A DNA stretch of 41,414 nucleotides from an uncultured bacterium (GCA_903832035.1 CAILAD010000012.1:1-41414), one strand, 5' to 3'; counted from the stretch's first letter, positions 2,621 to 29,002 are shown. The notes: a model not told the origin generated them from the sequence alone. Numbers and translations: made by a program.

Positions 2621-2628
2621 ATATTAAT

Positions 2629-2634
2629 ATTATA
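2629..2634 (-). promoter_or_regulatory. -10 box (TATAAT) 8 nt upstream of the ftsK ATG; candidate leaderless promoter
   Basis: Reverse strand reads gggTATAATattaatatATG. There is no SD in the gap. Confidence 0.45.
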
Positions 2635-2773
2635 CCCTCTCGAGGTTAGTGTAGCTATAAGGTAGAAACAAAAAGTCCCACAAAAATGGCCATTTCGCTA
2701 CTTGGCTGTAATTTTGTGGGCTAAATATAATTTCTACATGTAAATAATACCTTTAACATAACAATTATAGCAT

Positions 2774-2803
2774 ATTGACACAATAATAACAAGTATTGTC
2801 AAT
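2774..2803. promoter_or_regulatory. Inverted repeat ATTGACA-N16-TGTCAAT in the ftsK/ABC divergent intergenic region
   Basis: 7-bp perfect arms at 2774-2780 and 2797-2803. The right arm overlaps a TTGTCA -35-like hexamer (2796-2801), which lies 18 nt before TAAAAT. Confidence 0.35.
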
Positions 2804-2819
2804 TTAGAGCGGAACCAGG

Positions 2820-2825
2820 TAAAAT
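2820..2825 (+). promoter_or_regulatory. -10 box (TAAAAT) 6 nt upstream of the ABC exporter ATG; candidate leaderless promoter
   Basis: Sequence is ggTAAAATtaccttATG, with no SD. Confidence 0.4.
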
Positions 2826-2831
2826 TACCTT

Positions 2832-4592: not shown

Positions 4593-6721
4593 ACTTCGAT
4601 TACAACAGGTAAAACGATTGGACTTCGTTTAGTAACCTTGTAAAGCAGGTTACTCAACTCATCGCGCATTCTAGCCTTCACTACTGGTGAGTTGGGAGGA
4701 GTCTTTGGATTGCGGTGGGCAAATATGTTTTTAACTATTGTACGGGAGCTATTGAGTAGCTCTTCATTATCTTTAACATATATAAACCCACGGCTTATAA
4801 TGTCCGGACTGGTTACCAATTTACCAGTTTTACGGTTAACAGTAGCAATTACTGTAAATATACCGTCACTCGCCATGGCCAAACGGTCCTTTAAGACGAT
4901 CTCTTGAACATCACCTATACCACTACCATCAATTAGCACTGATCCTGATTGAACGATTGGGCCTAGCTTAATAGAGCCGTCTGCTACCGCTTCTAGTGTT
5001 TGGCCGTTTTCGATAACGAAAACGTTTTCTGGTTTAACTATTCCGCCACGCTTGGCGATTTCGGCATTATGAACCATGTGGTGGATTTCACCGTGGATTG
5101 GCAGGTAGTACTTAGGTCGAACCAGTTCAATCATTTCTTTTACTTCTTCGTAGTAGGCGTGGCCCGAGGTGTGCATAATCCCTAGATCATCAAAAGTTCT
5201 AGTTGCTTGTTGGTAAACGTAAGGTCCCCATCTGAATAGGTCATCAACCATTCCCCAGACTGATTTTTCATTACCGGGAATAATTGAACTAGAAAGCACA
5301 ACTACATCAGTAGCTTTTAGCTTAATATCTTTATGTTCACCCTTACCCATACGTACTAATCCAGAATTTTCTTCGCCTTGGTGACCAGTTGTAAGTACAG
5401 CTACTTCACCGTCTTGGTATTTATTAATATCTGCAGACTTAATCAGAACTCCTGGTGGCACCTTAACATACCCAAGCTTCACGGCTATTTCCATGTTAGA
5501 TAGCATGCTACGACCAGCTAGGGCCAGCTTGCGCTTAGCCTTGTGGGCAGCATCAACGAACACTTGAATTCTATCTACTTGAGATGCGAATGAGCTAATT
5601 ATTACACGCTTGTTATAATTACGAACAAAAATTTCATCAAGAGTTTCAATTATTTCTTGCTCCGTTGGGCTCTTACCCATATTTTCACAGCTAGTACTAT
5701 CACACATCAGCATCAATACACCTTCATCACCAAGCTCTTTTAGTCGAGCCTTATTACTAGGCTTGCCGCTTAGTGGGTCATCGTCAAATCTCCAGTCACC
5801 GGTGTTTATAATTGTACCGACTGGTGTTTTAATGGCGATACTACAGGCGTCTGGAATTGAGTGGGTTATTCGTATAAACTCTATCTGGAAAGCTCCCAAC
5901 TGAATCTTGTCACCTGAATCTTGATCAACAATACGAAAATCTGGCTTAAATGGTAGTTTGTATTCCTCAAGCTTGCGTTCCATATATTTAACAGTAAAGT
6001 GCGCTCCATATATTGGGGCTGGCATCTTAGGTAAAATAAATGGTGTACCTCCAACATGATCCTCGTGAGCGTGAGTTATTAGATAACCGCGTAGCTTATG
6101 CTTACGTTCTTCGAGGTAGGTAGTGTCAGGTATGATGTAATCAATACCTGGCATATCTGGACCTGGGAACATAAAGCCCATATCCATAATAATAATGTCA
6201 TTTTCATACTCTAGGGCCATCATGTTTTTACCAATCTTATCTAGTCCGCCAAGAGGTATTATCTTCAGTTTACCAGCATCAGCCTTACTCATTGCTACCT
6301 TATTTGAGGTAGCAGTTACTGCTACGCCAGCTGCTGGACGACTATTAGTATTGAAGCTTCCTTCAGAAAATACTGCTGGACCTCGGTCGTACTTACGTCG
6401 TTGGGCAAAGTTATCGCCGCCGCGACCTACGCCACGTGGACCAATTCCGCCACCCTGTCTATTTTGGTTATTCCTAGGCTTATTCTGATTATTTTGACCA
6501 GCGTATTGCTTCCTAGGGCCTGCCTGCTGAGGGCTGGGCTTATCTGCTACTGGGGTGCTATCATTTTTATTTTGAGTCGACATACCCAAATCTTGGGCTG
6601 TTAGCGGTCGACTATTGAATTGTTTTTTATTGTTTGAATCCATTAGGTTTAATGTTTTCTCCTTTTTCACCATAGATTGGTGATTTTTATTAATTATAAT
6701 GACGAATGCCATTTCGACCAA
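4589..6721 (-). CDS. rnj: Ribonuclease J with a long low-complexity N-terminal extension
   Basis: Metallo-beta-lactamase motif HAHEDHVGG. The canonical RNase J start block KLKIIPLGGLDKIGKNMMALEY begins only at residue 151. The true start is uncertain: TTG 6721, ATG 6673 or ATG 6643. Confidence 0.9.
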   Translation of the reverse strand: MVEMAFVIIINKNHQSMVKKEKTLNLMDSNNKKQFNSRPLTAQDLGMSTQNKNDSTPVADKPSPQQAGPRKQYAGQNNQNKPRNNQNRQGGGIGPRGVGRGGDNFAQRRKYDRGPAVFSEGSFNTNSRPAAGVAVTATSNKVAMSKADAGKLKIIPLGGLDKIGKNMMALEYENDIIIMDMGFMFPGPDMPGIDYIIPDTTYLEERKHKLRGYLITHAHEDHVGGTPFILPKMPAPIYGAHFTVKYMERKLEEYKLPFKPDFRIVDQDSGDKIQLGAFQIEFIRITHSIPDACSIAIKTPVGTIINTGDWRFDDDPLSGKPSNKARLKELGDEGVLMLMCDSTSCENMGKSPTEQEIIETLDEIFVRNYNKRVIISSFASQVDRIQVFVDAAHKAKRKLALAGRSMLSNMEIAVKLGYVKVPPGVLIKSADINKYQDGEVAVLTTGHQGEENSGLVRMGKGEHKDIKLKATDVVVLSSSIIPGNEKSVWGMVDDLFRWGPYVYQQATRTFDDLGIMHTSGHAYYEEVKEMIELVRPKYYLPIHGEIHHMVHNAEIAKRGGIVKPENVFVIENGQTLEAVADGSIKLGPIVQSGSVLIDGSGIGDVQEIVLKDRLAMASDGIFTVIATVNRKTGKLVTSPDIISRGFIYVKDNEELLNSSRTIVKNIFAHRNPKTPPNSPVVKARMRDELSNLLYKVTKRSPIVLPVVIEV

Positions 6722-6764
6722 AGTTGAGTACTACTCCACCTTGCTCGGGATGTCACACTTTTCT

Positions 6765-7334
6765 CTATATTGTTTTCAATATTTCAGGGATACGCGAGAA
6801 ATCTTCTTTTACTATACTACGCATCGATCCGTTATATAGTGCTGCTGCTGGGTGGTAGAGTGGTAACATAGCCACACCTGACTTATTCTGCAAGCGACCG
6901 TGCACTTCAGATATCTTTAATCCTGGTAGAAACACATTCATGCTATGGCGACCTAGAAAGACAAGTAACTTAGGCTTAATTATTTCAATTTGTCGATTTA
7001 GATAGGGTAAGCAGATATCTATCTCTTCAGCATTTGGATCTCGGTTGTCGGGTGGTCTGAACTTAACAATGTTAGTTACAAACACATCTTCACGCCTAAG
7101 GTCGATACTCACAAGCATTTCATCGAGAAATTTACCACTAGCACCTATGAACGGCTGGCCAGCTTTATCTTCTTGGGCACCTGGCGCTTCACCAATAAAC
7201 ATCAGTTCGGCATCAGGATTACCATTTCCAGGTACGGGGTTTAGGCAAGTCCTTGCAATTTCAAGACTGCATTTTCTAGAGATTATCTCTTCTGCAATAC
7301 TGTCTAACTTAGCTTGTTTTTCCTTCGTATCCAT
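6765..7334 (-). CDS. Uracil-DNA glycosylase, family 4-like
   Basis: Motif A is FIGEAPGAQEDKAGQPFIGASGKFLD and the motif B region is LYHPAAAL. Size is 189 aa. Confidence 0.8.
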   Translation of the reverse strand: MDTKEKQAKLDSIAEEIISRKCSLEIARTCLNPVPGNGNPDAELMFIGEAPGAQEDKAGQPFIGASGKFLDEMLVSIDLRREDVFVTNIVKFRPPDNRDPNAEEIDICLPYLNRQIEIIKPKLLVFLGRHSMNVFLPGLKISEVHGRLQNKSGVAMLPLYHPAAALYNGSMRSIVKEDFSRIPEILKTI

Positions 7335-7388: not shown

Positions 7389-9530
7389 CTACTTGTCGGC
7401 TAATTTCTTACTGAGGTTAAGTCGGCCCTTGTCATCTATCTCGGTAAGTTTAACTCTGAATTCATCACCTTCCTTAACTACATCATGAATGTTCTCTACC
7501 CGTTGATCAGAAAACTGACTGATGTGAACTAGGCCTTCTTTGCCTGGAAGTATTTCGACAAATGCGCCAAAATCCATAACTCTTATAGCTCTACCATTGT
7601 AGGTCTTACCAATTTCTGCCTCTGCGGTGATTGATTCTATCCATTCTTTTGCAGCATTAGCCTTAGCTTCATCCTCAGAGTAAATAAGAATTAGACCAGA
7701 GTCTTCAATGTCTATCTCAACGCCAGTTTCACCAGTAATCTTTTGGATAGTCTCACCGCCCTTACCAATAACCTCACGAATTTTTTCTGGGTTTATTGTA
7801 AGCTTGGTAATTCTTGGTGCATACTGACTAACTTCAGGCTTTGGTGTGGCGATAATTTCTAGCATCTTACCCATTATGTGCATTCTGCTCTCTTTTGCCT
7901 GACTTAAAGCCTCGGACATAATCTTCGGTGAGATACCCTTTACCTTTATATCCATTTGCAAAGCAGTAATACCTTTTTTAGTACCAGCAACCTTAAAATC
8001 CATATCGCCCGCAAAATCTTCAGCGTCTTGTATGTCGGATAAGATGACGTAATTCTCTGGTTTATCGTGGTCTATCATTAGTCCCATGGCAATACCTGCG
8101 ACAGGTGCGCTTATTGGCACACCAGCATCCATAAGACTCATAGTGCTACCACAAACGCTTGCCATCGAAGTAGAACCGGCACTACTAAGTAGCTCGGAGA
8201 CCACTCGAATGGTATATGGAAAGTCTTCAGTTTCTGGAATAACTGGAATAAGAGCTTTTTCGGCTAAGTAGCCATGGCCAACTTCTCGACGACCTGGGGA
8301 TCGTACTGGACGAACTTCGCCAGTACTGAATGGAGGGAAATTATAGTGATGCATATACCGCTTACTAGTATCCTCTTCCATGGTATCAATTAGCTGGGCA
8401 TCAGATAATGCTGCAAGGGTTGTAACGGTAAGGGCCTGAGTAGTTCCTCTAGTAAATATAGCTGACCCGTGAGTACGCGGTAGCATACCGGAATCACCTG
8501 AAATTGGACGAACTTCTGTAGTTCCTCTGTTGTCTGGTCGTTTCTTGTCTTCTAAAACAGCTCGGCGAATTTCCCCGTCGATTATTTTTTCAAATGACAA
8601 TTTTATATCAGCATGACTAAACCGAACCCTGCCATCATCGGCTACTTCTTCAGGTAACATACCTAATTCCTGGATTGCCTTATCCTCAAGTTCAGCAATA
8701 GCTTCATGTCTGGACTGCTTATTCTCATGCCTTATTCTCTCGCCTAAGTCATCTTTTAGGAGGGTCTTTAGGGCTTCGTAAGCATCTGGGTTAGGAGTAT
8801 ATAATTCAAAATTCATAGGCACTACGGCCATTTTTTTAACTAATTCATTCTGTAATTTGATTACTGGCTGCCAACTTGTTACAGCTAGTTCTAGAGCTTC
8901 AACTACAACTTGTTCAGATACTTCGTGCGAGGCACATTCGACCATCATTATGGCATCTTCAGTACCAGCTACAGTTAGGTTTAAATCACTATTTTCCTGC
9001 TCAGTTACAGTCGGGTTAACTACTAGCTTACCGTCAATTTGGCCGATTCTTGCAGCTGCTACCGGCCCATCAAAAGGAGCGCCTGTTAGCATCAGTGCGG
9101 TACTGGCAGCAATGACTGCGGCAATATCTGTTTCATGCTCTAGATCGGCACTAAGAACGGTCACCATAACCTGGACATCATTACGAAATCCTTTTGGAAA
9201 AAGTGGACGAATCGGACGATCAATAATCCGACTAGTCAAGATAGCTTTATCTGAAGGTCTACCTTCACGTTTCATAAATCTACTACCAGATATCTTACCG
9301 CTCGCATACATGCGCTCTTCATAGTCTATTAGTAGAGGGAAGAAGTCAGTTTCAGGTCTTGCCTTCGGGGCAACCACTGCTGTAGCAAGTAGCACCGTAT
9401 CACCGTACTGAACAGTTACTGCGGCGTCCGCTCGAAAAGCCAATCTTCCAGTTTCAATGGTTAATTTTTTACCAGCGAAATCGGTTTCAAGCTTTATTTG
9501 CTTTCCGTCAAAAGGATGAATTATCTTCAT
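7389..9530 (-). CDS. pnp: Polyribonucleotide nucleotidyltransferase (PNPase)
   Basis: 713 aa with two RNase PH domains and C-terminal KH (IGKGGETIQKI) and S1 (YNGRAIRVMDFGAFVEILPGKEGLVHISQ) domains. Lies downstream of rpsO. Confidence 0.97.
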   Translation of the reverse strand: MKIIHPFDGKQIKLETDFAGKKLTIETGRLAFRADAAVTVQYGDTVLLATAVVAPKARPETDFFPLLIDYEERMYASGKISGSRFMKREGRPSDKAILTSRIIDRPIRPLFPKGFRNDVQVMVTVLSADLEHETDIAAVIAASTALMLTGAPFDGPVAAARIGQIDGKLVVNPTVTEQENSDLNLTVAGTEDAIMMVECASHEVSEQVVVEALELAVTSWQPVIKLQNELVKKMAVVPMNFELYTPNPDAYEALKTLLKDDLGERIRHENKQSRHEAIAELEDKAIQELGMLPEEVADDGRVRFSHADIKLSFEKIIDGEIRRAVLEDKKRPDNRGTTEVRPISGDSGMLPRTHGSAIFTRGTTQALTVTTLAALSDAQLIDTMEEDTSKRYMHHYNFPPFSTGEVRPVRSPGRREVGHGYLAEKALIPVIPETEDFPYTIRVVSELLSSAGSTSMASVCGSTMSLMDAGVPISAPVAGIAMGLMIDHDKPENYVILSDIQDAEDFAGDMDFKVAGTKKGITALQMDIKVKGISPKIMSEALSQAKESRMHIMGKMLEIIATPKPEVSQYAPRITKLTINPEKIREVIGKGGETIQKITGETGVEIDIEDSGLILIYSEDEAKANAAKEWIESITAEAEIGKTYNGRAIRVMDFGAFVEILPGKEGLVHISQFSDQRVENIHDVVKEGDEFRVKLTEIDDKGRLNLSKKLADK

Positions 9531-14684: not shown

Positions 14685-14697
14685 AAGGGCCCTGGCT
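14685..14697. repeat. 13-mer AAGGGCCCTGGCT, copy 1 (copy 2 at 15121-15133)
   Basis: The identical 13-mer starts the terminator hairpin of both GC-rich minigenes. Confidence 0.7.
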
Positions 14698-14715
14698 GTA
14701 ATTACAGCCAGGGCC
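14688..14715 (-). terminator. Hairpin terminator of the 14774-15046 minigene
   Basis: Perfect 12-bp stem GGCCCTGGCTGT-aatt-ACAGCCAGGGCC. Two shorter hairpins precede it in the 3' UTR (14730-14742 and 14747-14762). The trailing tract on the minus strand, CTTACTTT, is only moderately U-rich. Confidence 0.5.
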
Positions 14716-14773
14716 AGTTGATGGGACAAGTAGCAATGCTACCTTGAGCTGCTAAAGCAGCTTGTGTTCTTGT

Positions 14774-15046
14774 CTAGCGCCAGGGGTCTTGACGGTCACG
14801 TGCACGGTCCAGATCTCTCTGGAGCTCACGAGCCCGTGCCCTGTCTTTGGTACGAGACCTGTTCAAGAACACAGCAACGGCTGTCAGACCAACGATAGCA
14901 ACCAGCAACACCGCCACCTCAGGCTTCGTTGACACGAAGACCATGATGAGCACTACTGCTGCCAGCGCCATAATAGCCCTGAACATTCCGTCAAAGAACT
15001 TATCCATGGATAAAGCTCTCCTTTCTCTTTTCTCTAGACGTTGCAA
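14774..15046 (-). CDS. Small 2-TM membrane protein with an Arg/Asp-rich tail (orphan, GC-rich)
   Basis: Hydrophobic spans AIMALAAVVLIMVFV and VAVLLVAIVGLTAVAVFL, with the tail RSRTKDRARARELQRDLDRARDRQDPWR. The likely start is ATG 15007, preceded by AAGGAG (15018-15023). Line 14821-14880 has 35/60 G+C. Confidence 0.55.
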   Translation of the reverse strand: MQRLEKRERRALSMDKFFDGMFRAIMALAAVVLIMVFVSTKPEVAVLLVAIVGLTAVAVFLNRSRTKDRARARELQRDLDRARDRQDPWR

Positions 15047-15073
15047 TCAAACTACGGTAGCTTGATCAGTAAC

Positions 15074-15102
15074 ATATTACCATAATTATACACAAAAGTC
15101 AA
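15074..15102 (-). promoter_or_regulatory. Near-consensus promoter TTGACT-17-TAATAT for the 14774-15046 minigene
   Basis: On the minus strand, -35 is at 15102-15097 and -10 at 15079-15074, with a 17-nt spacer. Confidence 0.55.
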
Positions 15103-15120
15103 ATAAATGCTACAAAATAA

Positions 15121-15133
15121 AAGGGCCCTGGCT
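15121..15133. repeat. 13-mer AAGGGCCCTGGCT, copy 2
   Basis: Identical to 14685-14697. Confidence 0.7.
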
Positions 15134-15173
15134 AGGGGTGTGAAGCGAACTTCAGTGACTCCAGGCCAAGGCC
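15121..15173 (-). terminator. Imperfect long hairpin + U-tract terminator of the 15180-15458 minigene
   Basis: On the minus strand, GGCCTGG pairs with CCAGG(G)CC around an inner TGAAG-ttcg-CTTCA stem. CTTTTATTTTG follows. Confidence 0.4.
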
Positions 15174-15179
15174 ATGTCT

Positions 15180-15458
15180 TCAAGCTATCGGCGAAGTGGG
15201 TTTACTACCAAGCTTCAGCTTGCTTGCGATTCGAGCGCGGGTGAACAAGTACACAACAATTGCAAGCAACGTGATCGCCGTGACCTGCAAGACGCCAACT
15301 TCGTGACGCAGGTAGTAGTGCCTGGACCACTTAGCAGCTGCGAATGCCAGCTCGCTGAACTTCCATGCGCCAAGCGCTAGAAAAACAATGACCAGGCTGT
15401 ACTTGATCTTTCTCTTGTCAACTAGAGACTTCATGGGTGCGAAGCCCTTTCTTAACAC
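15180..15458 (-). CDS. Small membrane protein (orphan, GC-rich)
   Basis: Hydrophobic spans YSLVIVFLALGAW and VLQVTAITLLAIVVYLF. Starts are GTG 15458 or ATG 15434. Stop is TGA. Confidence 0.5.
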   Translation of the reverse strand: MLRKGFAPMKSLVDKRKIKYSLVIVFLALGAWKFSELAFAAAKWSRHYYLRHEVGVLQVTAITLLAIVVYLFTRARIASKLKLGSKPTSPIA

Positions 15459-15492
15459 AATGCTAGATGTATTTCACCTAACAGATTTTTAT

Positions 15493-15521
15493 ATATTATC
15501 ACTATTATTACTTTTTGTCAA
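15493..15521 (-). promoter_or_regulatory. Consensus promoter TTGACA-17-TGaTAATAT for the 15180-15458 minigene; overlaps the mutM 3' end
   Basis: On the minus strand, -35 is at 15521-15516 and -10 at 15498-15493, with a 17-nt spacer and an extended TG. Confidence 0.55.
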
Positions 15522-16407
15522 TTGATGTTTTTAGCTTCTGACACCTGTTACAGACGTGCGTACCCCGGCCAGCCACCCTAATTTTACTTATTTTACCACC
15601 ACATTCTGGGCAGTCCTGACCCTCTCGCCTGAAGACTTTAGCAAACTTTAGATAACTACCTCTCTTGCCCTCGGCGTCCACATAATTTCTATCTGAGCTG
15701 CCACCCAAACTAATACTAAGACTCATGATTTCTATTAAGGCTTTAAAAAGTCTCCTAAGCTTAATTTGACTAATATTTTCTACTTTTTCAGCCGGATGTA
15801 TTCTAGCGGCAAATAATCCTTCGTCCGCATAAATATTTCCTACGCCTGCCAGTACAGTCTGATCTAGTATTACAGCTTTTATCGTAGACTTCTTTCGACT
15901 CGAGAGTGCGTTGCGAAATTGTTCGTATGTATAGTCCTTTTCCAGCGGTTCTGGTCCAAGCTTTTTTAAAAAAGCATTATTTTCATAAAGCCCATTACTA
16001 GCTTCTAGTTTTACCCAGCCAAACTTCCTTTGGTCATTAAAATACAGCCTTGCATCATTATTAAATACAAATGTTACACGGGTCGACCGATCTGGAAGCT
16101 TACTTACTAAACTGTCGTTTGGATGCCCTGCACCAAAGCGATCATGGTCTTTTGTAAAAACTAGCTGACCGGTCATCTTAAGGTGAATAAGCAGGCTATA
16201 GCCCGAAGATAAAGGAATGATAATGACCTTACCACGCCTGTCTACCTTCAAAATACTTGAGCCGATAAGCTTTGTGTCTACCAGTCTCTTTGAATTAGGA
16301 AAACCTTTCGGCCAATCAAAACTAACCGACTTTACTTTAAGTCCTGGCAAGAATTTGTTTAAACCCAACCTAACTGTCTCTACCTCTGGTAACTCTGGCA
16401 TAATCAT
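15508..16407 (-). CDS. mutM: Formamidopyrimidine-DNA glycosylase (Fpg/MutM)
   Basis: The catalytic N-terminus PELPEVETV fits the true start ATG 16401 (MPELPEV). H2TH region is present. The C-terminal zinc finger is CPECGGKISKIRVAGRGTHVCNRCQ. Confidence 0.93.
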   Translation of the reverse strand: MIMPELPEVETVRLGLNKFLPGLKVKSVSFDWPKGFPNSKRLVDTKLIGSSILKVDRRGKVIIIPLSSGYSLLIHLKMTGQLVFTKDHDRFGAGHPNDSLVSKLPDRSTRVTFVFNNDARLYFNDQRKFGWVKLEASNGLYENNAFLKKLGPEPLEKDYTYEQFRNALSSRKKSTIKAVILDQTVLAGVGNIYADEGLFAARIHPAEKVENISQIKLRRLFKALIEIMSLSISLGGSSDRNYVDAEGKRGSYLKFAKVFRREGQDCPECGGKISKIRVAGRGTHVCNRCQKLKTSIDKK

Positions 16408-16410
16408 TGC

Positions 16411-16416
16411 ATTATA
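16411..16416 (-). promoter_or_regulatory. -10 box (TATAAT) 9 nt upstream of ATG 16401 in mutM; a second TATAAT lies at 16421-16426
   Basis: Reverse strand reads TATAATcaggTATAATgcaATGattATGcca. A TSS about 7 nt after the proximal box would leave ATG 16401 as the first AUG. Confidence 0.4.
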
Positions 16417-16439
16417 CCTGATTATAGACTTTTTTTAAA

Positions 16440-16468
16440 TTGACTTTACATTATTTTTATGCTAATAT
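16440..16468 (+). promoter_or_regulatory. Near-consensus promoter TTGACT-17-TAATAT (cassette 1)
   Basis: -35 at 16440-16445 and -10 at 16463-16468. Confidence 0.6.
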
Positions 16469-16503
16469 ATTGGATCGAACCTTGAATTTTGTTAGGAGGC
16501 CTT

Positions 16504-16653
16504 GTGTCTATTTTTAATATCGCATTGGTGGTAATTTTTTTTATCATCCTTGCATTTAGTATAGTATACGGTTTCTTCGGGAGTCTGGTGTACTCGGCAT
16601 TTGCAGTTTTTCTTCTTCACATCGTTTGGGATGAAACTAGAAAGGACAAGTAA
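16504..16653 (+). CDS. 49-aa hydrophobic peptide (below the ORF-track cutoff)
   Basis: GTG start 4 nt after AGGAGG (16494-16499). My translation is MSIFNIALVVIFFIILAFSIVYGFFGSLVYSAFAVFLLHIVWDETRKDK. Its TAA stop directly abuts the GTG of the Fic-like ORF (TAAGTG). Confidence 0.45.
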   Translation: MSIFNIALVVIFFIILAFSIVYGFFGSLVYSAFAVFLLHIVWDETRKDK

Positions 16654-17169
16654 GTGATAATTGTAAACATTGTTGACACAAAACTAACTCCACTTGAGCT
16701 AGCCCTAGTTTGTGAGGAGTGTATGTTGCAAGAAGATGCCACTCCTCAAGCACTCAAGGGTCTAGCTAAGGCGCTGGTACTGACAAAAATCTCTGCTAGC
16801 ACTTGGGGAGATGAGCCAGTCGACGGCCATATGCTTGAAGAGCTTATTTATTGTCTCGGCCAAATCGTAAAGCCCGAAAACAAGACTGGCTGGCGAGTTA
16901 TGCCCGTTAGCTTCTCTAGTCTAGAGCTTGCTACAGACCCTCAAAGCATTCCCCGCGCAATGCGTAGTTATTGTGAGGCCTTTGTGGAGATGCGTTTTGA
17001 CAGTCCTGATCTGGCATATTACCACTTTGAGATGATTCACCCCTTCAAAGATGGCAACGGTCGGGTCGGCTGGCTAATGTGGCTACTATATAGCTTCATC
17101 ACCACTGGTGATTGGCCAGAGGCGCTGGCTCCAAACTTCTTTAACCTTAGGAGGGAATTTATCTCTTAG
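16654..17169 (+). CDS. Minimal Fic/Doc-fold (Fido) protein with a degenerate active-site motif
   Basis: HPFKDGNGRVGW, compared with the Fic motif HxFx(D/E)GN(G/K)RxxR. Only 33 residues follow the motif. GTG start. Confidence 0.7.
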   Translation: MIIVNIVDTKLTPLELALVCEECMLQEDATPQALKGLAKALVLTKISASTWGDEPVDGHMLEELIYCLGQIVKPENKTGWRVMPVSFSSLELATDPQSIPRAMRSYCEAFVEMRFDSPDLAYYHFEMIHPFKDGNGRVGWLMWLLYSFITTGDWPEALAPNFFNLRREFIS

Positions 17170-17178
17170 GTTAAAGTC

Positions 17179-17212
17179 TAGGACCCCGTATTATTTACGG
17201 GGTCCTATTTTT
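17179..17212 (+). terminator. Intrinsic terminator of cassette 1
   Basis: 12-bp stem TAGGACCCCGTA-ttatt-TACGGGGTCCTA followed by TTTTT. Confidence 0.8.
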
Positions 17213-17213
17213 A

Positions 17214-17243
17214 TTGACTTAAAAATATAGGTTGTGATATGTT
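17214..17243 (+). promoter_or_regulatory. Promoter TTGACT-18-TGaTATGTT (cassette 2)
   Basis: -35 at 17214-17219 and an extended -10 at 17235-17243. Confidence 0.45.
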
Positions 17244-17279
17244 TATGCAGATCTAGAGCTCGATTTTAGATAGCAAGGA

Positions 17280-17516
17280 GTGGTCATGGACTTCGAAATA
17301 TTCAATAAGCATATTACGCGCATCCTGGTATCAACCGCGGCATTTCTAGTTATTCTAAACTGTTTAGCAAACAATTTTATTTTGTCGGTCTTAGGTCTAG
17401 GCTTCATGGCAATGATTTTATTGTGCTATAGTCAGTATCGAGAAAACCAGAATCTACAGGAATGGGTAGAAAGCCTAGAACGGCAGCTCAATGATGAGCG
17501 AGGTATGTGGCAATGA
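17280..17516 (+). CDS. Small 2-TM protein with a helical C-terminal tail (orphan)
   Basis: The likely start is ATG 17286, 5 nt after AAGGAG (17275-17280). TM spans are ILVSTAAFLVILNCL and ILSVLGLGFMAMILLCY. The tail is SQYRENQNLQEWVESLERQLNDERGMWQ. Confidence 0.5.
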   Translation: MVMDFEIFNKHITRILVSTAAFLVILNCLANNFILSVLGLGFMAMILLCYSQYRENQNLQEWVESLERQLNDERGMWQ

Positions 17517-17698
17517 ATCTTTTTATCGTTTACGTTCTCATCCTTACAGTATTGGCGGTATTTTACTTATTGATGAGAGCTGCTGGAGTCCAAAGTAGCA
17601 AGATTATGCTCTCGATCATGCTGATATTCTTGATTCTACCTATAGGCATAGTCCTGTCGGTCAAGTTTGTCGGTGATGCCAAGAAAAATAATCTTTAA
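17507..17698 (+). CDS. Small 2-TM protein (orphan), translationally coupled to the previous ORF
   Basis: ATGA overlap at 17513-17516: ATG 17513 against TGA 17514-17516. The ORF-track start is GTG 17507. Sequence is MNLFIVYVLILTVLAVFYLL...MLIFLILPIGIVLSV. Confidence 0.5.
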   Translation: MAMNLFIVYVLILTVLAVFYLLMRAAGVQSSKIMLSIMLIFLILPIGIVLSVKFVGDAKKNNL

Positions 17699-17702
17699 CA
17701 TA

Positions 17703-17731
17703 CTCTGGGAATTATATCCCAGGGTTTTTTT
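17703..17731 (+). terminator. Intrinsic terminator of cassette 2
   Basis: CTGGGA-attata-TCCCAG followed by GGTTTTTTT. Confidence 0.7.
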
Positions 17732-17743
17732 AATACATTATTA

Positions 17744-17772
17744 TTGACTTATTATATTATTTATGCTATTAT
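17744..17772 (+). promoter_or_regulatory. Near-consensus promoter TTGACT-17-TATTAT (cassette 3)
   Basis: -35 at 17744-17749 and -10 at 17767-17772. The spacer ends in tttatgc, like cassette 1. Confidence 0.6.
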
Positions 17773-17822
17773 ATTGACGTAAATATAGAGGCAAGTCGTC
17801 TTTATATCCGAACATTAAGGAG

Positions 17823-18413
17823 TTGGTCCAATTGGCCACTTTCGAGTCAGTCTTGCTGCAGTTCAGCTTCAGCAACAAGAAACTAGTTCCAGTATCTGCC
17901 CAGCAGCTTCCAGTCGAAACAATCGACAACATGAAGCAAAGGGTTGCTGCCGGAAATGGCAACTGCCTGCTTGAGCCTGTGGTTCAGACCGATGTTTCTG
18001 AGATCCAAAAGGACCTTCAGAGTGCTGGCTACGTGCTGGTTGGCGGGTCAACACAGGAAAGGCTGAAAAAAAAGGATGGTTCACCCTACTGGATGGTACG
18101 ATTCATATTCGTTCCCTCCGACCGGGCTGAAGTCTCCGATCAGTTCAGCGTTGAAGATGCCACGGCTGCCCTCGACGAGATCACTAGCATGTCTTTCTGG
18201 CGTGCTAGGGGGTTTGACAACCCTGCTGAAAACGATGGCAGAATGCTCTCGATAAACCTTGAGGCGCGAGTCCAGCGCTACATCGGTGAGAACATTGAGC
18301 AGCCGGTGTCAGCAAGGCATCGAGACGAAGACGGCAAGCCCTTTGGTGAACCCCTTCCCATCCGACCCCAAGGCATCCTTGGATTCCAGGATCAGTCCCT
18401 GATCCTCAAGTAA
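17823..18413 (+). CDS. 196-aa orphan protein, GC-rich with C/G-ending codons
   Basis: Long clean ORF after AAGGAG (17817-17822). The likely start is TTG 17832 or ATG 17931, because TTG 17823 abuts the SD. I recognise no motif. Line 18121-18180 has 36/60 G+C. Confidence 0.55.
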   Translation: MVQLATFESVLLQFSFSNKKLVPVSAQQLPVETIDNMKQRVAAGNGNCLLEPVVQTDVSEIQKDLQSAGYVLVGGSTQERLKKKDGSPYWMVRFIFVPSDRAEVSDQFSVEDATAALDEITSMSFWRARGFDNPAENDGRMLSINLEARVQRYIGENIEQPVSARHRDEDGKPFGEPLPIRPQGILGFQDQSLILK

Positions 18414-18420
18414 CATTCAC

Positions 18421-18474
18421 GCCCCGAGACCACAAGTCCCGGGCAACAGCCCCGAGACCCAATGGTCTCGGGGC
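18421..18474. repeat. GCCCCGAGACC present twice direct (18421-18431, 18449-18459) and once inverted (18464-18474)
   Basis: Read directly from the sequence. Confidence 0.8.
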
Positions 18475-18483
18475 CTTACTTTT
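18449..18483. terminator. Terminator shared by convergent cassette 3 and polA
   Basis: 11-bp stem GCCCCGAGACC-caat-GGTCTCGGGGC followed by CTTACTTTT. The polA stop is at 18485. Confidence 0.7.
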
Positions 18484-18484
18484 G

Positions 18485-21220
18485 TCAGTCGAGCTCACCC
18501 CAATTAGCCCCTACCTTGATTCCTACTTCGATTGGGACTTCAAACTTATGCACTGCTATCATTTCTTTAGAGATCAATTTAGATACTAACTCAACCTGGT
18601 CTTTATCGCATTCCACTATTAATTCATCATGGATCTGCAATATTAAATTAGCTCCAGCTGGAAGCTTTTTATGAATGCTTACCATAGCCAGCTTCATCAT
18701 ATCTGCAGCTGTACCCTGCAGAGGCATATTTACAGCTGCTCTCTCTGCTGAAGAACGAACCATAAAGTTACTCGAATGCACGTCGGGACATGGCCTCCGT
18801 CTACCAAAAATTGTCTCGGTATAACCCTTATCATGAGCCATCTTTTTAATACTCGCTATATAGTCAGCAACACCTCTGCGGAGGTTGAAGTACCGGTCAA
18901 TAAAATCCTTGCTTTTTGCATAATCGAAACCAGTAGCCACAGAAAGTCCGTGCGTATTCATTCCATACAGGACCCCAAAATTAATTGCTTTTGCCGCATA
19001 GCGTTGCTCCGGCTTTACATCAGAGGGCTTAATATCAAACATTTCTGCAGCTGTGGCGGTATGAATGTCAGCCCCCTCTTTAAAGGACTTAATCATTGGC
19101 TCGTCACCCGCTAGGGCGGCTGCCAACCTAAGTTCAATCTGGCTATAATCAGCTGAGACAAATAGCTTACCTCTACCAGCCACAAAAGCTCTTCTTATCT
19201 CTTTTCCCATATCTGTTCTTGTTGGGATATTCTGAAGATTAGGATTGGTGCTGCTTAGTCTTCCGGTCTGGGCTATAGTCTGGTTATAGCTAGTGTGAAT
19301 ACGGTTATCTGCCTTGACTAGTCTCGGCAGCGAATCAACGTAGGTGCTCTTTAATTTAGTTAATTCGCGATATTCAAACATCATATCGATAATTTCATGC
19401 TTACCCTTGAGCTTATCTAGCTCGCTGGCAGCCGTACTAATACCGGTCTTAGTTTTTTTAAGTCCCGACGTATCTATATTTAACTTCTGAAAAAGAATCA
19501 CCTGAAGTTGGGCTGGGGAGCTAATATTAAATTCTTCGCCAGCTATCTTCCAAATATCTCTCTGTAACTTATTAATTTTCTTTTCATATTCACCTGATAA
19601 CTTAATAAGAAAATCACTATCTAAACCAATACCCTGTTTCTCCATATCTCCAAGGACCTCAATAAGGGACCACTCCATATCCTTAGCAAGTCTCGTCAAA
19701 TTCCCAATCGAAGCTAATTCCTTTTCTAGCTTTATATAAAGCCGCCAGGATATATCTGCATCTTCTGCTGCATACTGAGTTGCTTTTTTAATATCTATAT
19801 CATCAAAAGTTACCTGATTTTTTCCTTTAGGGCCAATCAGCTCTTCTATTCCTATCATTGAAATACCTAACTCGCTGTATGCTAACTGACTCAAGCTCTG
19901 AGCCCTACCTATAGGATTAATAAGAAATGCTGCCACCATAGTATCAAATATTATTGAGTCAATTTTTTGATCATACTTTCGTAATACCACGTAGTCATAC
20001 TTAATATTATGACCGACCTTGCCGATCTTTGGATTCTGCAGGATTGGGCCTACTAACCTCTTAAAATCAGAGATACTTATCTCAGTTTTTTGTTTATGGT
20101 TTAAGGGAACATAGTATGCCTCCCCTTCTTTAAAGCTAAACGATGCGCCGACTAGATTTGCATCTATTTCATCTGTGCTGTCTGTTTCGGTGTCAAAAGC
20201 AAAAACCTTTTGCTTTTTTAATTTATCTACCAATAACTCCAGCTCCGATATCTTTGTAATTGCTTGGTAATTAGATTTTTTTAAATGTTCCCGATTAAAT
20301 TCTGTAGCTTTATTTTCTTTTACCAAGTCATCATCTGATATATCTGAGTTTACCTTTTCTTCGGGCAGCTTAGCCAATAGGCTTTTAAACTCCAGGTGAT
20401 GAAAAAGGTCATACACCTTCTTTTTGTCATACTCATGTAGGAGTGCATCACTTAGGTTAAAGTCTAATTCTACATCTCTTTTTATCGTAGAGAGGTCCAG
20501 ACTAAGATAGGCGCTAGCCTTACCTGCAGTTAGCTTTTTAGCTAGTGCTGGCTTGATTAGATCGATGTTGCTGTAAATCTCATCAAGAGTCTTATACTCG
20601 GACACTAGTTCGGTAGCTCCTTTGTCACCAATTCCAGCAACACCCGGGATGTTGTCACTTGTATCACCCTTAAGGGCTTTATATACGATAAACTCCTCGG
20701 GTGTCACGCCATACTTGTCTACAACTGCTGCCTCATCGTAAACAAACGTATCTGTAAAACCCTTGCGCATCGTGTATATTTTTACATGGTCGGATACAAG
20801 CTGAAGCTCATCCATATCACCAGTTACTACGACAACGTCTAGACTCTTCTCATAATCCTTGGTGAGAGTACCAATAATATCATCAGCCTCAAAGCCTGAT
20901 GACTCCAGCAGTGGAATATTAAACGCCGCGACCACCTCTTTAGTTAGTGGCATCTGCGAATACAGCTCATCAGGAGCCTTTTTACGAGTTGCCTTATACT
21001 CTGAATACTGAACATGTCTAAAAGTCTTACCAGGGGCATCCCAAGCCACTACGGCATAGTCTGGTTTGAGTTCCCTAAGAGCTAGGAGCATCATAGTTGT
21101 AAAGCCATAGACTGCGTTGGTTGGTGTGCCGTCTTTGGTAGTTAAGTGTGGGATGGCATGAAAACCACGATGGACGAGGGCATGACCATCAAAAATTACT
21201 AATTTTTTTCTGTCTGACAT
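18485..21220 (-). CDS. polA: DNA polymerase I (5'-3' exonuclease, 3'-5' exonuclease and polymerase domains)
   Basis: GDTSDNIPGVAGIG (5' nuclease), FAFDTETDS (Exo I), DYSQIELRLAA (motif A), RYAAKAINFGVLYG (motif B) and QIHDEL (motif C). Confidence 0.97.
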   Translation of the reverse strand: MSDRKKLVIFDGHALVHRGFHAIPHLTTKDGTPTNAVYGFTTMMLLALRELKPDYAVVAWDAPGKTFRHVQYSEYKATRKKAPDELYSQMPLTKEVVAAFNIPLLESSGFEADDIIGTLTKDYEKSLDVVVVTGDMDELQLVSDHVKIYTMRKGFTDTFVYDEAAVVDKYGVTPEEFIVYKALKGDTSDNIPGVAGIGDKGATELVSEYKTLDEIYSNIDLIKPALAKKLTAGKASAYLSLDLSTIKRDVELDFNLSDALLHEYDKKKVYDLFHHLEFKSLLAKLPEEKVNSDISDDDLVKENKATEFNREHLKKSNYQAITKISELELLVDKLKKQKVFAFDTETDSTDEIDANLVGASFSFKEGEAYYVPLNHKQKTEISISDFKRLVGPILQNPKIGKVGHNIKYDYVVLRKYDQKIDSIIFDTMVAAFLINPIGRAQSLSQLAYSELGISMIGIEELIGPKGKNQVTFDDIDIKKATQYAAEDADISWRLYIKLEKELASIGNLTRLAKDMEWSLIEVLGDMEKQGIGLDSDFLIKLSGEYEKKINKLQRDIWKIAGEEFNISSPAQLQVILFQKLNIDTSGLKKTKTGISTAASELDKLKGKHEIIDMMFEYRELTKLKSTYVDSLPRLVKADNRIHTSYNQTIAQTGRLSSTNPNLQNIPTRTDMGKEIRRAFVAGRGKLFVSADYSQIELRLAAALAGDEPMIKSFKEGADIHTATAAEMFDIKPSDVKPEQRYAAKAINFGVLYGMNTHGLSVATGFDYAKSKDFIDRYFNLRRGVADYIASIKKMAHDKGYTETIFGRRRPCPDVHSSNFMVRSSAERAAVNMPLQGTAADMMKLAMVSIHKKLPAGANLILQIHDELIVECDKDQVELVSKLISKEMIAVHKFEVPIEVGIKVGANWGELD

Positions 21221-27790: not shown

Positions 27791-29002
27791 TTATTTCCAA
27801 GTCCAGGTAGAAGCAAGAGTGTCGCTAGCCTTTTTTGAGGCATCATCGCTATAGGTTGTCGATATCAAAAATCCATTCACAGCCGTACCGCTGGATTGGT
27901 AATTTTTACCTGGTGTTAGGACTGCTATGACTTGCTGATCTACACCAGCTACATTCATGACGACTTTTTTGGCATCTAGTCCGTTAAGCTTTATATCGCT
28001 TTGGGTCGATATTGTGCCGTTATAAGTTGTCTTTGCCTTATCAACCAAGGCTTGAAGGTCTGTAGTGGCATCGGTTACGGGATCCACGAGTAAGCTATAT
28101 TGAGAGGTTGCGCCGAATTTTGCACCCATCTTACAGATAGTTTTTTGGAAATCTACTGTTGTTGGCAGTAGTACGCCGAATGAAAAACAATCTCTAGTCA
28201 CTTGCTGGTAGCCATCAGGTATGACCGCAGGCGCTGTGGTGGTACTAGTGGAAGCCTGTTGATTCTGGTCGACGGTTTGGTTATTAAGATTAACAGATGT
28301 TTTATTAGCGTTTCGACTGTAAAATAGTGCAACCAGGCTAGCAATAACTACAATTGCTATAACAACCACTGCGATGATAATAAATTTCAAAGGTCCACTT
28401 TTCTTCTTGCTCTGCTGAAGGGCTAGGTTGTTGGCCATGGCATTATTGCTGACACCAAAGTCGACTGGAATCGAGCCAAGCGAGTTATCTTGGTAGGGTG
28501 CAGCGCTAGTAGCTTGTGGCTCTGGCTGAACGGGAATACCAGGTTGCATATCACCGGGCTGAGTGTAGGGTAAGGGCTGATCGGTGGGGCTTGCTTGAGG
28601 ATTAGTCTGCTGATAATTAGGCTGGTTACTAAGGTCTAGTGTATTTGAAGTAATTGGAGCTGGTTGTGAAGCCGGTTGGGGCTGAATTGGAGCAGGGGTA
28701 GTAGGCGGAGTGTAGACATCTTGTGGCGGGGCGGCGGAGGGTGGGGACATACTCTCTAGGGGATTACCTGTTAGGACCGGTGATGCAGTCGGCTGAGGTG
28801 CAGGAGTTGTTGGGTAAGCATTAGGCAGCTCGGGTGTTTGCATCTCTGCAGCAGGCGTAAACGTCGAACCTGCCAGTGGCGCTGTCTGGGCGGGCTGAAT
28901 TGGCGGCTGCCCTGTAGTAGGTGCCGGCTGAGCAACAGACCCCCCTGCTATGTTGTTGTCAGTACCTGGTATTGGAAATGTATTGTCTTGTGGATCTTGC
29001 AT
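27791..29002 (-). CDS. Single-pass membrane protein with a 190-aa P/Q/T/A-rich N-terminal region and a C-terminal extracytoplasmic domain
   Basis: Low-complexity N-terminus, then KKKSGP followed by the TM span LKFIIIAVVVIAIVVIASLVALFY, then a 180-aa domain with two Cys residues. Confidence 0.65.
   Translation of the reverse strand: MQDPQDNTFPIPGTDNNIAGGSVAQPAPTTGQPPIQPAQTAPLAGSTFTPAAEMQTPELPNAYPTTPAPQPTASPVLTGNPLESMSPPSAAPPQDVYTPPTTPAPIQPQPASQPAPITSNTLDLSNQPNYQQTNPQASPTDQPLPYTQPGDMQPGIPVQPEPQATSAAPYQDNSLGSIPVDFGVSNNAMANNLALQQSKKKSGPLKFIIIAVVVIAIVVIASLVALFYSRNANKTSVNLNNQTVDQNQQASTSTTTAPAVIPDGYQQVTRDCFSFGVLLPTTVDFQKTICKMGAKFGATSQYSLLVDPVTDATTDLQALVDKAKTTYNGTISTQSDIKLNGLDAKKVVMNVAGVDQQVIAVLTPGKNYQSSGTAVNGFLISTTYSDDASKKASDTLASTWTWK

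Follow-up and report, generated by a model that had tools for sequence, protein, structure and literature searches.

Among characterised Fic enzymes, the class II AMP-transferases (FICD/HYPE, SoFic, CdFic) are proteins of more than 330 residues with an N-terminal inhibitory helix motif and TPR or winged-helix extensions, whereas NmFic, of class III, is a small single-domain Fic protein in which GNGRxxR is complete and an SxxxEG inhibitory helix is present at the C terminus. In the class I pairs FicT/FicA and VbhT/VbhA a small gene directly precedes the Fic gene and is translationally coupled to it; its product carries an (S/T)xxxE(G/N) motif, the Glu of which engages an Arg of the Fic partner. 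Two Fic-fold enzymes of non-AMPylating chemistry, the kinase Doc and the phosphocholine transferase AnkX, deviate from the motif after its first Arg and bind their donor differently.

A second group of described loci is of concern here. The cREC_REC domain (PF20274), predicted to process cyclic phosphates and experimentally uncharacterised, is found in neighbourhoods devoted to RNA-end and ADP-ribose processing (Iyer et al., PMC7824862, PMC9503650); no mention of Fic was found in these two papers.

The window analysed here is a stretch of 41,414 nucleotides from an uncultured bacterium which, judging by its MutM protein, whose best relatives are from Saccharibacteria, is a member of the Saccharibacteria (TM7). 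A sequence-only reading had taken the five genes between mutM and polA for one acquired module centred on a Fic-like enzyme. The analysis presented below makes it likely that this gap is a variable spacer in the conserved rpsT-holA-mutM-polA neighbourhood, occupied by three independently transcribed units with different histories. In agreement with the earlier reading, the locus matches no named system.

Organization of the mutM-polA gap

The gap measures 2.08 kb, and every sizeable open reading frame in it lies on the + strand. Three successive units of promoter, SD sequence, reading frame and terminator are present there just as previously described (Table 1; the SD context served to refine the start codons).

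Table 1. Features of the mutM-polA gap and its left flank, numbered from the first nucleotide of the window
Feature	Coordinates	Strand	Remarks
Extra unit left of mutM	14688..15102	-	Promoter 15102-15074; TM77 gene 15007-14774; terminator 14715-14688
Extra unit left of mutM	15180..15521	-	Promoter 15521-15493; p92, small membrane protein, 15458-15180
mutM (left flank)	15508..16407	-	Pfam Fapy_DNA_glyco, H2TH, zf-FPG
Unit 1 promoter	16440..16468	+	TTGACT-17-TAATAT, extended -10 TG; matches strict pattern
p49	16504..16653	+	49 aa, two predicted membrane helices; GTG 16504; AGGAGG 4 nt upstream; stop abuts Fic start
mini-Fic	16654..17169	+	171 aa; motif HPFKDGNGRVGW; GTG 16654, directly after p49 stop
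Unit 1 terminator	17179..17212	+	12-bp stem, then T-run; -22.7 kcal/mol
Unit 2 promoter	17214..17243	+	TTGACT-18-TATGTT with TG; strict-pattern scan
p76	17286..17516	+	Two predicted membrane helices, charged C-terminal tail; ATG 17286; AAGGAG 5 nt upstream
p61	17513..17698	+	Two predicted membrane helices; ATG 17513; ATGA overlap with p76 stop
Unit 2 terminator	17702..17732	+	9-bp stem, then T7; -13.9 kcal/mol
Unit 3 promoter	17744..17772	+	TTGACT-17-TATTAT with TG; strict-pattern scan
193-aa protein	17832..18413	+	Most likely start TTG 17832; 196 aa if from 17823
Unit 3 terminator	18449..18483	+	Between the convergent 193-aa gene and polA; 11-bp stem; -24.3 kcal/mol
polA (right flank)	18485..21220	-	Pfam DNA_pol_A and exonuclease domains

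A generic promoter scan of the window gave 20 sites, to be compared with 17.3 ± 4.2 in shuffled sequences, i.e. no enrichment. The strict, extended -10 pattern TTGACN(15-16)TGNTANNNT occurs six times in the 41.4 kb against 0.26 ± 0.58 expected, a number that none of 100 shuffles reaches, and five of the six matches fall within 15074-17772. The promoters of units 1 and 3 are 79% identical over 34 nt. A duplicated CCCCGAGACC permits a longer alternative hairpin over 18412-18484 (-37.4 kcal/mol). The gap does hold three separate transcription units, each having its own promoter and strong terminator, and all three are probably strongly promoted. No match came from scanning the window for Rfam families and tRNA genes, so that no riboswitch, leader RNA or tRNA integration site is indicated.

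The same style of promoter, small reading frame and terminator continues left of mutM, on the - strand, between 14688 and 15521, a continuation that had been overlooked. Strict promoters also precede the two small-gene units found there, the products of which, TM77 and p92, both have genes with a GC3 of 0.62. Two membrane helices are predicted in TM77, which also has an Arg-rich tail, and the cluster of p92 includes one member named 'hypothetical protein [Candidatus Saccharibacteria bacterium]'.

The Fic protein of unit 1

The assignment of a Fic fold to the product of unit 1 is genuine: the protein matches Pfam PF02661 with 31.9 bits (cut-off 24, E = 2.5e-7), its AlphaFold2 model reaches a pLDDT of 95.5 and a pTM of 0.91, and Foldseek retrieves FICD, Coxiella Fic2, SoFic and IbpA with a probability of 1.0 and TM values of about 0.6. 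A profile search against the PDB gives E = 3e-8 to 3e-9. The best structural and profile matches are class II enzymes, with which the protein, called mini-Fic hereafter, has the core helices, the flap region and the HPFxDGNGR active-site loop in common. It is however only about half their size, shares roughly 20% sequence identity with them and lacks both the N-terminal inhibitory helix motif and the TPR or winged-helix extensions. In size and in its single domain it is comparable to the NmFic type, but it has neither the SxxxEG inhibitory helix nor a complete GNGRxxR; NCBIfam and Foldseek matches to this type are weak and cover part of the protein only.

Relative to FicT/FicA and VbhT/VbhA, the coupled small gene upstream is a shared trait, but its product here is hydrophobic, lacks (S/T)xxxE(G/N) and has two predicted membrane helices, mini-Fic is devoid of the Arg engaged by the antitoxin Glu, and sister genomes have not conserved the pairing of p49 with Fic. 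As to Doc and AnkX, which like mini-Fic deviate after the first Arg, the motif reads GNGR and not ANKR (Doc) or ANGR (AnkX), and there is no sequence affinity beyond the Fic core; the Doc-type motif HxFx(D/N)(A/G)NKR is absent from mini-Fic, and the PHROG Doc-like match has E = 0.35. PADLOC gives no full-length match to SoFic or PDC-S04: most matches comprise 19-50 residues around the motif, out of profiles of 202-361 positions, one PDC-S04 model spans 88 residues, and the other four reading frames are without match.

Mini-Fic belongs to a clade of proteins of 142-208 residues whose members come from Patescibacteria and from viral contigs of IMG/VR. This clade retains the catalytic His, the Asp and the anion hole GNGR. 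With respect to HxFx(D/E)GNGRxxR, the window protein lacks the last R, whereas H, F, D, GNG and the first R are in place; the same applies to all 43 clade members checked, none of which has the second Arg, its position being occupied by Trp in the window Fic and by D, A, N, K, S, M, E or L elsewhere. A regular-expression search for the (S/T)xxxE(G/N) inhibitory motif retrieved none of 24 cellular mini-Fics, and the three hits among 19 viral ones are at unconserved positions and correspond to stray matches; inspection by eye of p49 and of the membrane proteins TM65, TM55 and TM64 did not reveal the motif either.

About 27 near-full-length mini-Fics were recovered from viral contigs, together with partial matches to long canonical Fics, all of which retain GNGRVGR. 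Members of the clade also occur on contigs of jumbo-phage size. No match was obtained by tblastn of Fic against the INPHARED phage genomes, and a fold search of BFVD returned generic Fic matches only. Literature searches on Fic in Saccharibacteria or Patescibacteria, on cREC with Fic and on phage Fic with tRNA yielded nothing relevant, and no description of this compact clade was found.

Genomic context of mini-Fic in relatives

The polA-to-mutM order is general in Saccharibacteria, with gap sizes varying from 1.7 to 5.5 kb. Comparison was made with four or five independent sister loci, several of them short contigs, the identities to the window being 70-76% for MutM, 68% for PolA, 45-55% for Fic and 31-38% for the 196-aa protein. 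In these genomes Fic is located beside mutM as in the window, and is accompanied by a CCA-adding enzyme, a cREC_REC protein and a small membrane protein of a different kind. In L084, holA and mutM, both pointing left, are followed by rightward genes for a 211-aa protein, TM64, cREC and Fic, then by the leftward CCA enzyme gene, a rightward 179-aa gene and leftward polA. In L085 and L086 leftward mutM precedes rightward cREC, TM and Fic genes and the leftward CCA enzyme gene; L003 repeats this arrangement but lacks the CCA enzyme, and in L089 Fic alone, pointing right, separates leftward mutM from the leftward CCA enzyme gene. L203 and L204 show RmuC, Fic and rpsT in one direction, facing holA. 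Neither a cREC_REC nor a CCA enzyme gene was found elsewhere in the window, where tblastn with three cREC proteins gave nothing better than E = 1.

The viral contigs show related associations. On L123 (184 kb), a reading frame of 1490 residues combines the PolyA_pol head, RNA-binding and HD domains with a mini-Fic at residues 863-1020, i.e. a mini-Fic domain fused to a CCA-adding enzyme, and on L126 a cREC_REC gene (Pfam E = 3.4e-24) is situated 1.5 kb upstream of mini-Fic. Over the whole clade the neighbours are heterogeneous (CCA enzyme, cREC, RmuC, DnaE, HAD, PDDEXK). The contexts of L092 and L093 were considered as phage, given their suggestive runs of small genes on one strand, but not retained, as they contain just two weak matches to PHROGs of unknown function.

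The retained catalytic residues and the missing regulatory elements suggest that mini-Fic may be an active phospho- or nucleotidyl-transferase that is not self-inhibited and that would bind its donor in another way than the classical AMPylating enzymes of the Fic family do. Its target may lie in nucleic-acid metabolism, because the clade adjoins cREC_REC and CCA enzyme genes, is fused to a CCA enzyme in one case and elsewhere neighbours RmuC or DnaE; the heterogeneity of the neighbours and the ability of large phage proteins to join unrelated domains weaken this suggestion. A more specific proposal would be that mini-Fic, together with cREC_REC and the CCA enzyme, performs a non-classical chemistry in the modification or repair of RNA or tRNA 3' ends, is no protein-AMPylating toxin, and is kept by Saccharibacteria beside mutM as a chromosomal housekeeping or anti-phage function. 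We regard this extended version as unlikely.

Small membrane proteins

Exact sequences of the three small gap proteins are present as called genes on public contigs, 6 for p49, 8-12 for p76 and 16 for p61. Family searches with p49 (Pfam, NCBIfam, PADLOC, PHROG level) gave no match and those with p76 only matches below threshold. None of the three has a detectable relative in any sister locus, only same-species copies being found, which does not fit the earlier view of dedicated membrane partners of Fic; the term species-specific rests here on about 200 loci and on clusters at 90% identity. In this restricted sense p49 would be a species-specific membrane peptide translated just upstream of Fic, perhaps as an anchor, a regulator or an unrelated product, and unit 2 a species-specific pair of small membrane proteins. 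An equivalence of p49 with the membrane protein that adjoins Fic in relatives was tested and rejected (E = 1.5). It is TM77 that is a true relative of this protein in L003 and L085 (HMM E = 5e-11; tblastn 5e-5).

Given the tight coupling, and since three of the relatives have some small membrane protein close to Fic, p49 and Fic could form a functional pair. That unit 1 by itself is a toxin-antitoxin or abortive-infection pair of phage origin, in which p49 restrains or localises Fic, seems to us improbable. The abutting of the p49 stop and the Fic start, the small upstream gene of the classical FicT/FicA and VbhT/VbhA pairs, the lack of a built-in inhibitory motif in the clade, its frequency on viral contigs and the small membrane protein of some kind near Fic in L003, L084 and L085 would all be in keeping with such a pair, but p49 has neither an [ST]xxxE[GN] motif nor a relative in sister loci, and the Fic-adjacent membrane protein of relatives is of another family, whose copy in the window, TM77, is found across mutM on the other strand and whose members also occur without Fic in L091. 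Moreover, L089 and L087 are without any small upstream membrane reading frame, the second Arg, which is the partner of the antitoxin Glu in known systems, is missing clade-wide, and toxin-antitoxin loci do not usually keep a stable place next to core genes.

The 196-residue protein

The product of unit 3, previously called an orphan, has at least 361 homologous clusters by phmmer at E ≤ 1e-3, of which 159 at E ≤ 1e-10 cover residues of approximately 5-190, and thus belongs to a family of about 200 residues, at least part of which is found in Patescibacteria. The family alignment (A5) is characterised by the motifs QFSFSN, WRVRA..NP and LSINLEAR; the window protein carries QFSFSN, WRARGFDNP and LSINLEAR and scores 217 bits against the HMM, in accordance with its membership. 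No Pfam, NCBIfam, PHROG or PDB match was found for the family: scanning 61 members against Pfam, NCBIfam and PHROGs gave stray single matches only, and the A5 profile retrieved nothing among PDB sequences. A scan of viral contigs did not detect the family, and the single-sequence AlphaFold2 model of the window protein is unusable (pLDDT 35.7).

In both L084 and L091 a counterpart is located next to polA as in the window, L091 being without Fic. Relatives without Fic are also encountered in L090 and about 25 metagenome loci; conversely, L003, L085 and L089 possess Fic without the 196-aa gene, so that the two genes do not belong together as had been assumed. No recurrent neighbour of the family emerged from 28 metagenome loci, whose contexts are housekeeping-like. 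Unit 3 would accordingly be a solitary gene from an unnamed and widespread family, some members of which are found in Patescibacteria.

Origin of the gap genes

The four G+C values counted by hand in the sequence-only reading are exact. The off-background composition it reported is strong for the 196-aa gene (G+C 0.53, GC3 0.60) and only modest for the other gap genes (GC3 0.47 for Fic, 0.46 for p76 and 0.48 for p61), the window background being 0.40 for G+C and 0.28-0.43 for GC3. Codon bias of highly expressed genes is ruled out as a cause by the GC3 of rpsO (0.34) and rpsT (0.28), and a strand effect by the other + strand genes, which are GC3-poor. In relatives the GC3 of the Fic, cREC and membrane genes stays high (0.64 in L085 against 0.38-0.42), and therefore simple vertical descent is not a sufficient account. 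Pfam domains of integrases and transposases are absent, as the earlier reading had it, and the promoters are the sole direct repeats; no hallmark of a mobile island (integrase, transposase, flanking repeats, border tRNA gene) was found in the window.

A recent acquisition is not supported, since Fic beside mutM and the 196-aa gene beside polA have been kept at a MutM identity of 70-76%. The gap might nevertheless be a recombination hotspot, the shared positions of the two genes resulting from repeated insertion and not from inheritance. This we also hold to be improbable. Gap content does vary widely among Saccharibacteria (none of the five genes is present in the mutM-polA gap of L005-L011 and L018), the gap genes of all relatives have a high GC3, both sides of mutM vary (the window has TM77 and p92, L091 a 202-aa gene and L084 nothing), and the 196-aa gene is the segment most divergent between strains (2.5% versus about 0.3%), 11 of its 15 differences being at codon position 3. 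On the other hand, in a neighbour-joining tree the mutM-adjacent Fics form one clade of mutually closest relatives, Fic divergence scales with MutM divergence, the borders contain no repeats, integrase or tRNA gene, and a distant Patescibacteria Fic is likewise linked to rpsT and holA. Mini-Fic would thus have resided by mutM since the common ancestor of this Saccharibacteria subclade; an old acquisition from phage is possible, as the clade is common on viral contigs.

That the five genes constitute one acquired toxin/immunity, abortive-infection or host-effector module, with the membrane and 196-aa proteins serving Fic, is very improbable, for although they are adjacent, on one strand opposite to both flanking genes, strongly promoted, off-background in composition, matched to SoFic and PDC-S04 by PADLOC and intact in order on four contigs of the same species from different samples (L001, L002, L095 and L096, at least 97% identical to the window), outside the species they never occur together, a result that the earlier reading had itself named as refuting. 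Fic is encountered alone, as is the 196-aa gene, both in sister genomes and elsewhere, a separate promoter and a strong terminator belong to each unit, the PADLOC matches span only 25-50 residues around the Fic motif, and the 196-aa family is found in housekeeping-like contexts without recurrent neighbour. The variable spacer with three independent units is the reading that we prefer.

Significance

The Fic-based system that had been proposed would have been new; the locus is no such system. In the reduced genomes of Saccharibacteria, strong promoters, terminators and an odd G+C content around small genes do not imply that these genes form one system. Having at least 361 clusters but no Pfam model, the family of about 200 residues is a candidate to be defined as a new one. 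The sole lead worth following from this locus is the mini-Fic clade, which is compact, common to Patescibacteria and phages, and devoid of both regulatory hallmarks of characterised Fic enzymes. If its link with cREC_REC and the CCA enzyme is functional, Fic chemistry would be extended towards RNA ends.

Gene content of the mutM-polA gap

The 2.08 kb gap between mutM and polA holds five ORFs, all on the + strand. p49 and Fic constitute the first transcription unit, p76 and p61 the second, and a gene for a 193-aa protein the third. The exact sequences of p49, p76 and p61 are called as genes on 6–16 public contigs, and four contigs from other samples, belonging to the same species (98.8–99.6% identity), retain the five-gene order. 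Among GTDB representatives, the closest relatives of the window MutM come from metagenome-assembled Saccharibacteria genomes, with at most 63% identity. In these relatives polA followed by mutM on one strand is the general arrangement, and the gap is occupied by 1.7–5.5 kb of variable genes (a ~190-aa membrane-anchored protein, a HAD hydrolase, NUDIX, dUTPase and others), none of which is related to the five ORFs of the window.

Features of the mutM-polA region and of other parts of the window
Feature	Position	Strand	Basis or remark	GC3
Kinase-like gene, 157 aa	11746-12219	-	AAA_33/KTI12 (Pfam hits on same-species contig L001)	0.53
TM77 and p92 units together	14688-15521	-	Promoter and small membrane ORF each	
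TM77, small membrane ORF	14774-15007	-	Between holA and mutM; own strict-consensus promoter	0.62
p92, small membrane gene	15180-15458	-	Between holA and mutM; own strict-consensus promoter	0.62
mutM	15508-16407	-	Pfam	
p49	Start GTG 16504	+	SD spacing	
Fic	Start GTG 16654	+	SD spacing; directly after p49 stop	0.47
p76	Start ATG 17286	+	SD spacing	0.46
p61	Start ATG 17513	+	SD spacing; ATGA overlap	0.48
193-aa gene	Start most likely TTG 17832	+	SD spacing	0.60
polA	18485-21220	-	Pfam	
403-aa ORF with GC-rich patch	27791-29002	-		

Transcription signals and base composition

Scans recover all three promoters and all three terminators where a sequence-only reading had placed them, the terminator hairpins of units 1–3 having folding energies of -22.7, -13.9 and -24.3 kcal/mol. 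A generic promoter scan of the window reveals no enrichment (20 sites vs. 17.3 ± 4.2); the strict extended -10 form TTGACN(15-16)TGNTANNNT is enriched, with 6 occurrences in the window vs. 0.26 ± 0.58 in shuffled sequences, and five of the six fall within 15074-17772. Since TM77 and p92 both carry strict promoters and the TM77 unit has a terminator of -26 kcal/mol, this cassette style reaches both sides of mutM. The spot between holA and mutM is empty in L084, a 64-kb Saccharibacteria contig, and is occupied by a 202-aa gene in another relative, L091.

The window promoters at 16439-16472 and 17743-17776 have an extended consensus in common, ATTGACTT..(N)..TTTATGCTAnTATATTG, which probably represents the strong sigma-70 promoter form of the lineage; sequences resembling it by eye are present near 517 and 1786 of the sister contig L003. 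Two copies of CCCCGAGACC lie in 18412-18484, which comprises the 3'-terminal part of the 193-aa gene and the spacer behind it, and either copy can pair with the single GGTCTCGGGG; the alternative hairpins that result, at -24.3 and -37.4 kcal/mol, separate the 193-aa gene from polA, which converges on it.

The G+C values counted by hand in the sequence-only reading are exact. Genes of the window have GC3 values of 0.28–0.43, with the few exceptions listed in the table. Codon bias of highly expressed genes is ruled out as the cause of the excess, because ribosomal protein genes are GC3-poor. In relatives, the cREC_REC (PF20274), membrane and Fic genes show a like excess (0.64 vs. 0.38–0.42 in L085), and an old foreign origin, possibly from phage, followed by slow adjustment to the composition of the host, is plausible. 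The persistence of the excess is thereby explained only in part. The GC3 of the kinase-like gene lies well over that of its neighbours. Another patch of high GC (0.55 at 28501-29000) lies within the N-terminal Pro/Gln/Thr-rich low-complexity part of the 403-aa ORF; an RNA gene at this place was ruled out, Rfam and tRNA scans being negative.

The 193-aa protein belongs to a family

A word-indexed search with the 193-aa protein returned only the same-species copy. Exhaustive phmmer searching yielded 361 homologous clusters at E <= 1e-3, of which 159 reach E <= 1e-10, so that the protein, previously regarded as an orphan, is not one. All relatives are ~200 aa in length and match end to end, with the conserved motifs QFSFSN..VP, WRVRA..NP and LSINLEAR.P. 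The family has no match in Pfam, NCBIfam, PHROG or PDB, and the one member that carries a name is a hypothetical protein from Patescibacteria. L084 (31% identity) and L091 (38%) have genes at this position that likewise converge on polA, the gap of the latter containing only a TM77-family and a 193-aa-family gene and no Fic. No neighbour of the family recurs across 28 metagenome loci. On one metagenome contig, L102, a member (2874-3581) and a Fic-like ORF (8745-9335; HMM E = 1e-9, cut by the contig end) lie 5 kb apart; this is the sole other co-occurrence seen, and the genes are not adjacent.

Strain differences in the 193-aa gene fall at third codon positions in 11 of 15 cases, and the gene is therefore real and under purifying selection. 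In comparisons with the same-species contigs L095 and L096, divergence between strains is highest at 17832-18413 (~2.5% vs. ~0.3% in mutM and Fic), and most differences are synonymous, which suggests import of the allele by recombination.

The mini-Fic clade

The 171-aa protein scores above the Pfam Fic threshold, and its AlphaFold2 model, built from a 24-sequence alignment (pLDDT 95.5), matches FICD and other Fic structures with probability 1.0 and TM ~0.6, in agreement with the Fic fold first assigned to it. Its motif, HPFKDGNGRVGW, retains the catalytic His, the Asp, GNG and the first Arg; the second Arg of HxFx(D/E)GNGRxxR is replaced by Trp in the profile alignment to FICD. A profile search identified 33 short Fic proteins, and a scan of IMG/VR added ~27 near-full-length relatives of 142–208 aa. 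All 43 clade members compared have W, D, A, N, K, S, M, E or L in place of the second Arg, and the longer canonical Fic proteins caught as partial matches all retain GNGRVGR. The inhibitory motif [ST]xxxE[GN] occurs in 0 of 24 cellular members; 3 of 19 viral ones contain it, at positions that are not conserved. These features mark the mini-Fics as a distinct clade. In two Saccharibacteria relatives, P0007 and P0010, Arg replaces the catalytic His (IRPLEDGNGR and IRPFKDGNGR), and these may be inactive copies.

Genomic neighbourhoods of the mini-Fics

In sister genomes the mini-Fic also lies beside mutM. The gene orders are rpsT, holA<, mutM<, >211aa, >TM64, >cREC_REC, >Fic, <CCA-adding enzyme, >179aa, <polA in L084; mutM<, >cREC_REC, >TM, >Fic, <CCA enzyme in L085/L086; mutM<, >cREC_REC, >TM65, >Fic, >194aa in L003; and mutM<, >Fic, <CCA enzyme in L089. 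In these loci MutM is 75–76% and Fic 45–55% identical to the window proteins; cREC_REC and CCA enzyme genes are absent from the window. The mutM-adjacent Fics constitute one clade in a neighbour-joining tree, and a more distant Patescibacteria mini-Fic has the order RmuC>, Fic>, rpsT>, <holA. Their presence beside mutM in sister loci, their single clade and the distant member linked to rpsT/holA argue that the Fic is an old resident of the mutM neighbourhood, and was not inserted recently. In the distant lineage (L203:1-2506 and L204:512-2181), the mini-Fic starts 2 nt after RmuC (1613-1614) and is followed by rpsT and holA, a core neighbourhood that the window shares.

On viral contigs, mini-Fics mostly lie among series of small uncharacterised genes, and three cases are more informative. 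L126 carries cREC_REC 1.5 kb upstream, L148 has DnaE directly upstream, and L123 (IMGVR_UViG_3300037755_000305, 184 kb) shows a fusion, in which one 1490-aa ORF at 2415-6887 comprises an entire CCA-adding enzyme, with its PolyA_pol head, RNA-binding and HD domains, and a full mini-Fic domain at residues 863–1020. About 900 residues of this ORF have no assigned domain.

Separate units rather than one module

Outside the species, none of the ~200 loci compared contains a relative of p49, p76 or p61, and the three belong to 90%-identity clusters of 1–3 members. The membrane protein adjoining Fic in L003 and L085 is of another family than p49: an HMM built from these two matches TM77 at E = 5e-11 and an L091 ORF at 3.5e-9, and p49 only at E = 1.5. 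Because they relate to TM77 and not to p49, the idea that Fic has dedicated membrane partners is unsupported; p49 may anchor or modulate Fic. Each of the three units, or five with those left of mutM, has its own promoter and in most cases its own terminator, and their gene contents have differing distributions across genomes. The three transcription units stand as first described, and their interpretation as a single toxin/immunity or host-interaction module fails the refutation test set for it. What lies between the two genes is a variable spacer, rich in promoters, within a Saccharibacteria core-gene neighbourhood.

Putative activity and target of the mini-Fic

The mini-Fic is putatively catalytically competent and would be free of class I–III Glu-Arg autoinhibition, as both the inhibitory motif and the second Arg are missing from its sequence. 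Loss of the second Arg would change the binding of the donor's terminal phosphate, for which Doc and AnkX are precedents. The neighbours, together with the single CCA-enzyme fusion, point to a possible target in nucleic-acid metabolism and, in particular, in the processing of RNA or tRNA 3' ends. The CCA enzyme restores the ends of tRNAs. For cREC_REC, the predicted activity is the opening of cyclic phosphates (PMC7824862, PMC9503650). The link to RNA-end metabolism is speculative, and the RmuC, DnaE and PDDEXK neighbours leave room for a role on DNA as well. The noteworthy element of the region is the mini-Fic clade, a new variant within the known Fic enzyme family.
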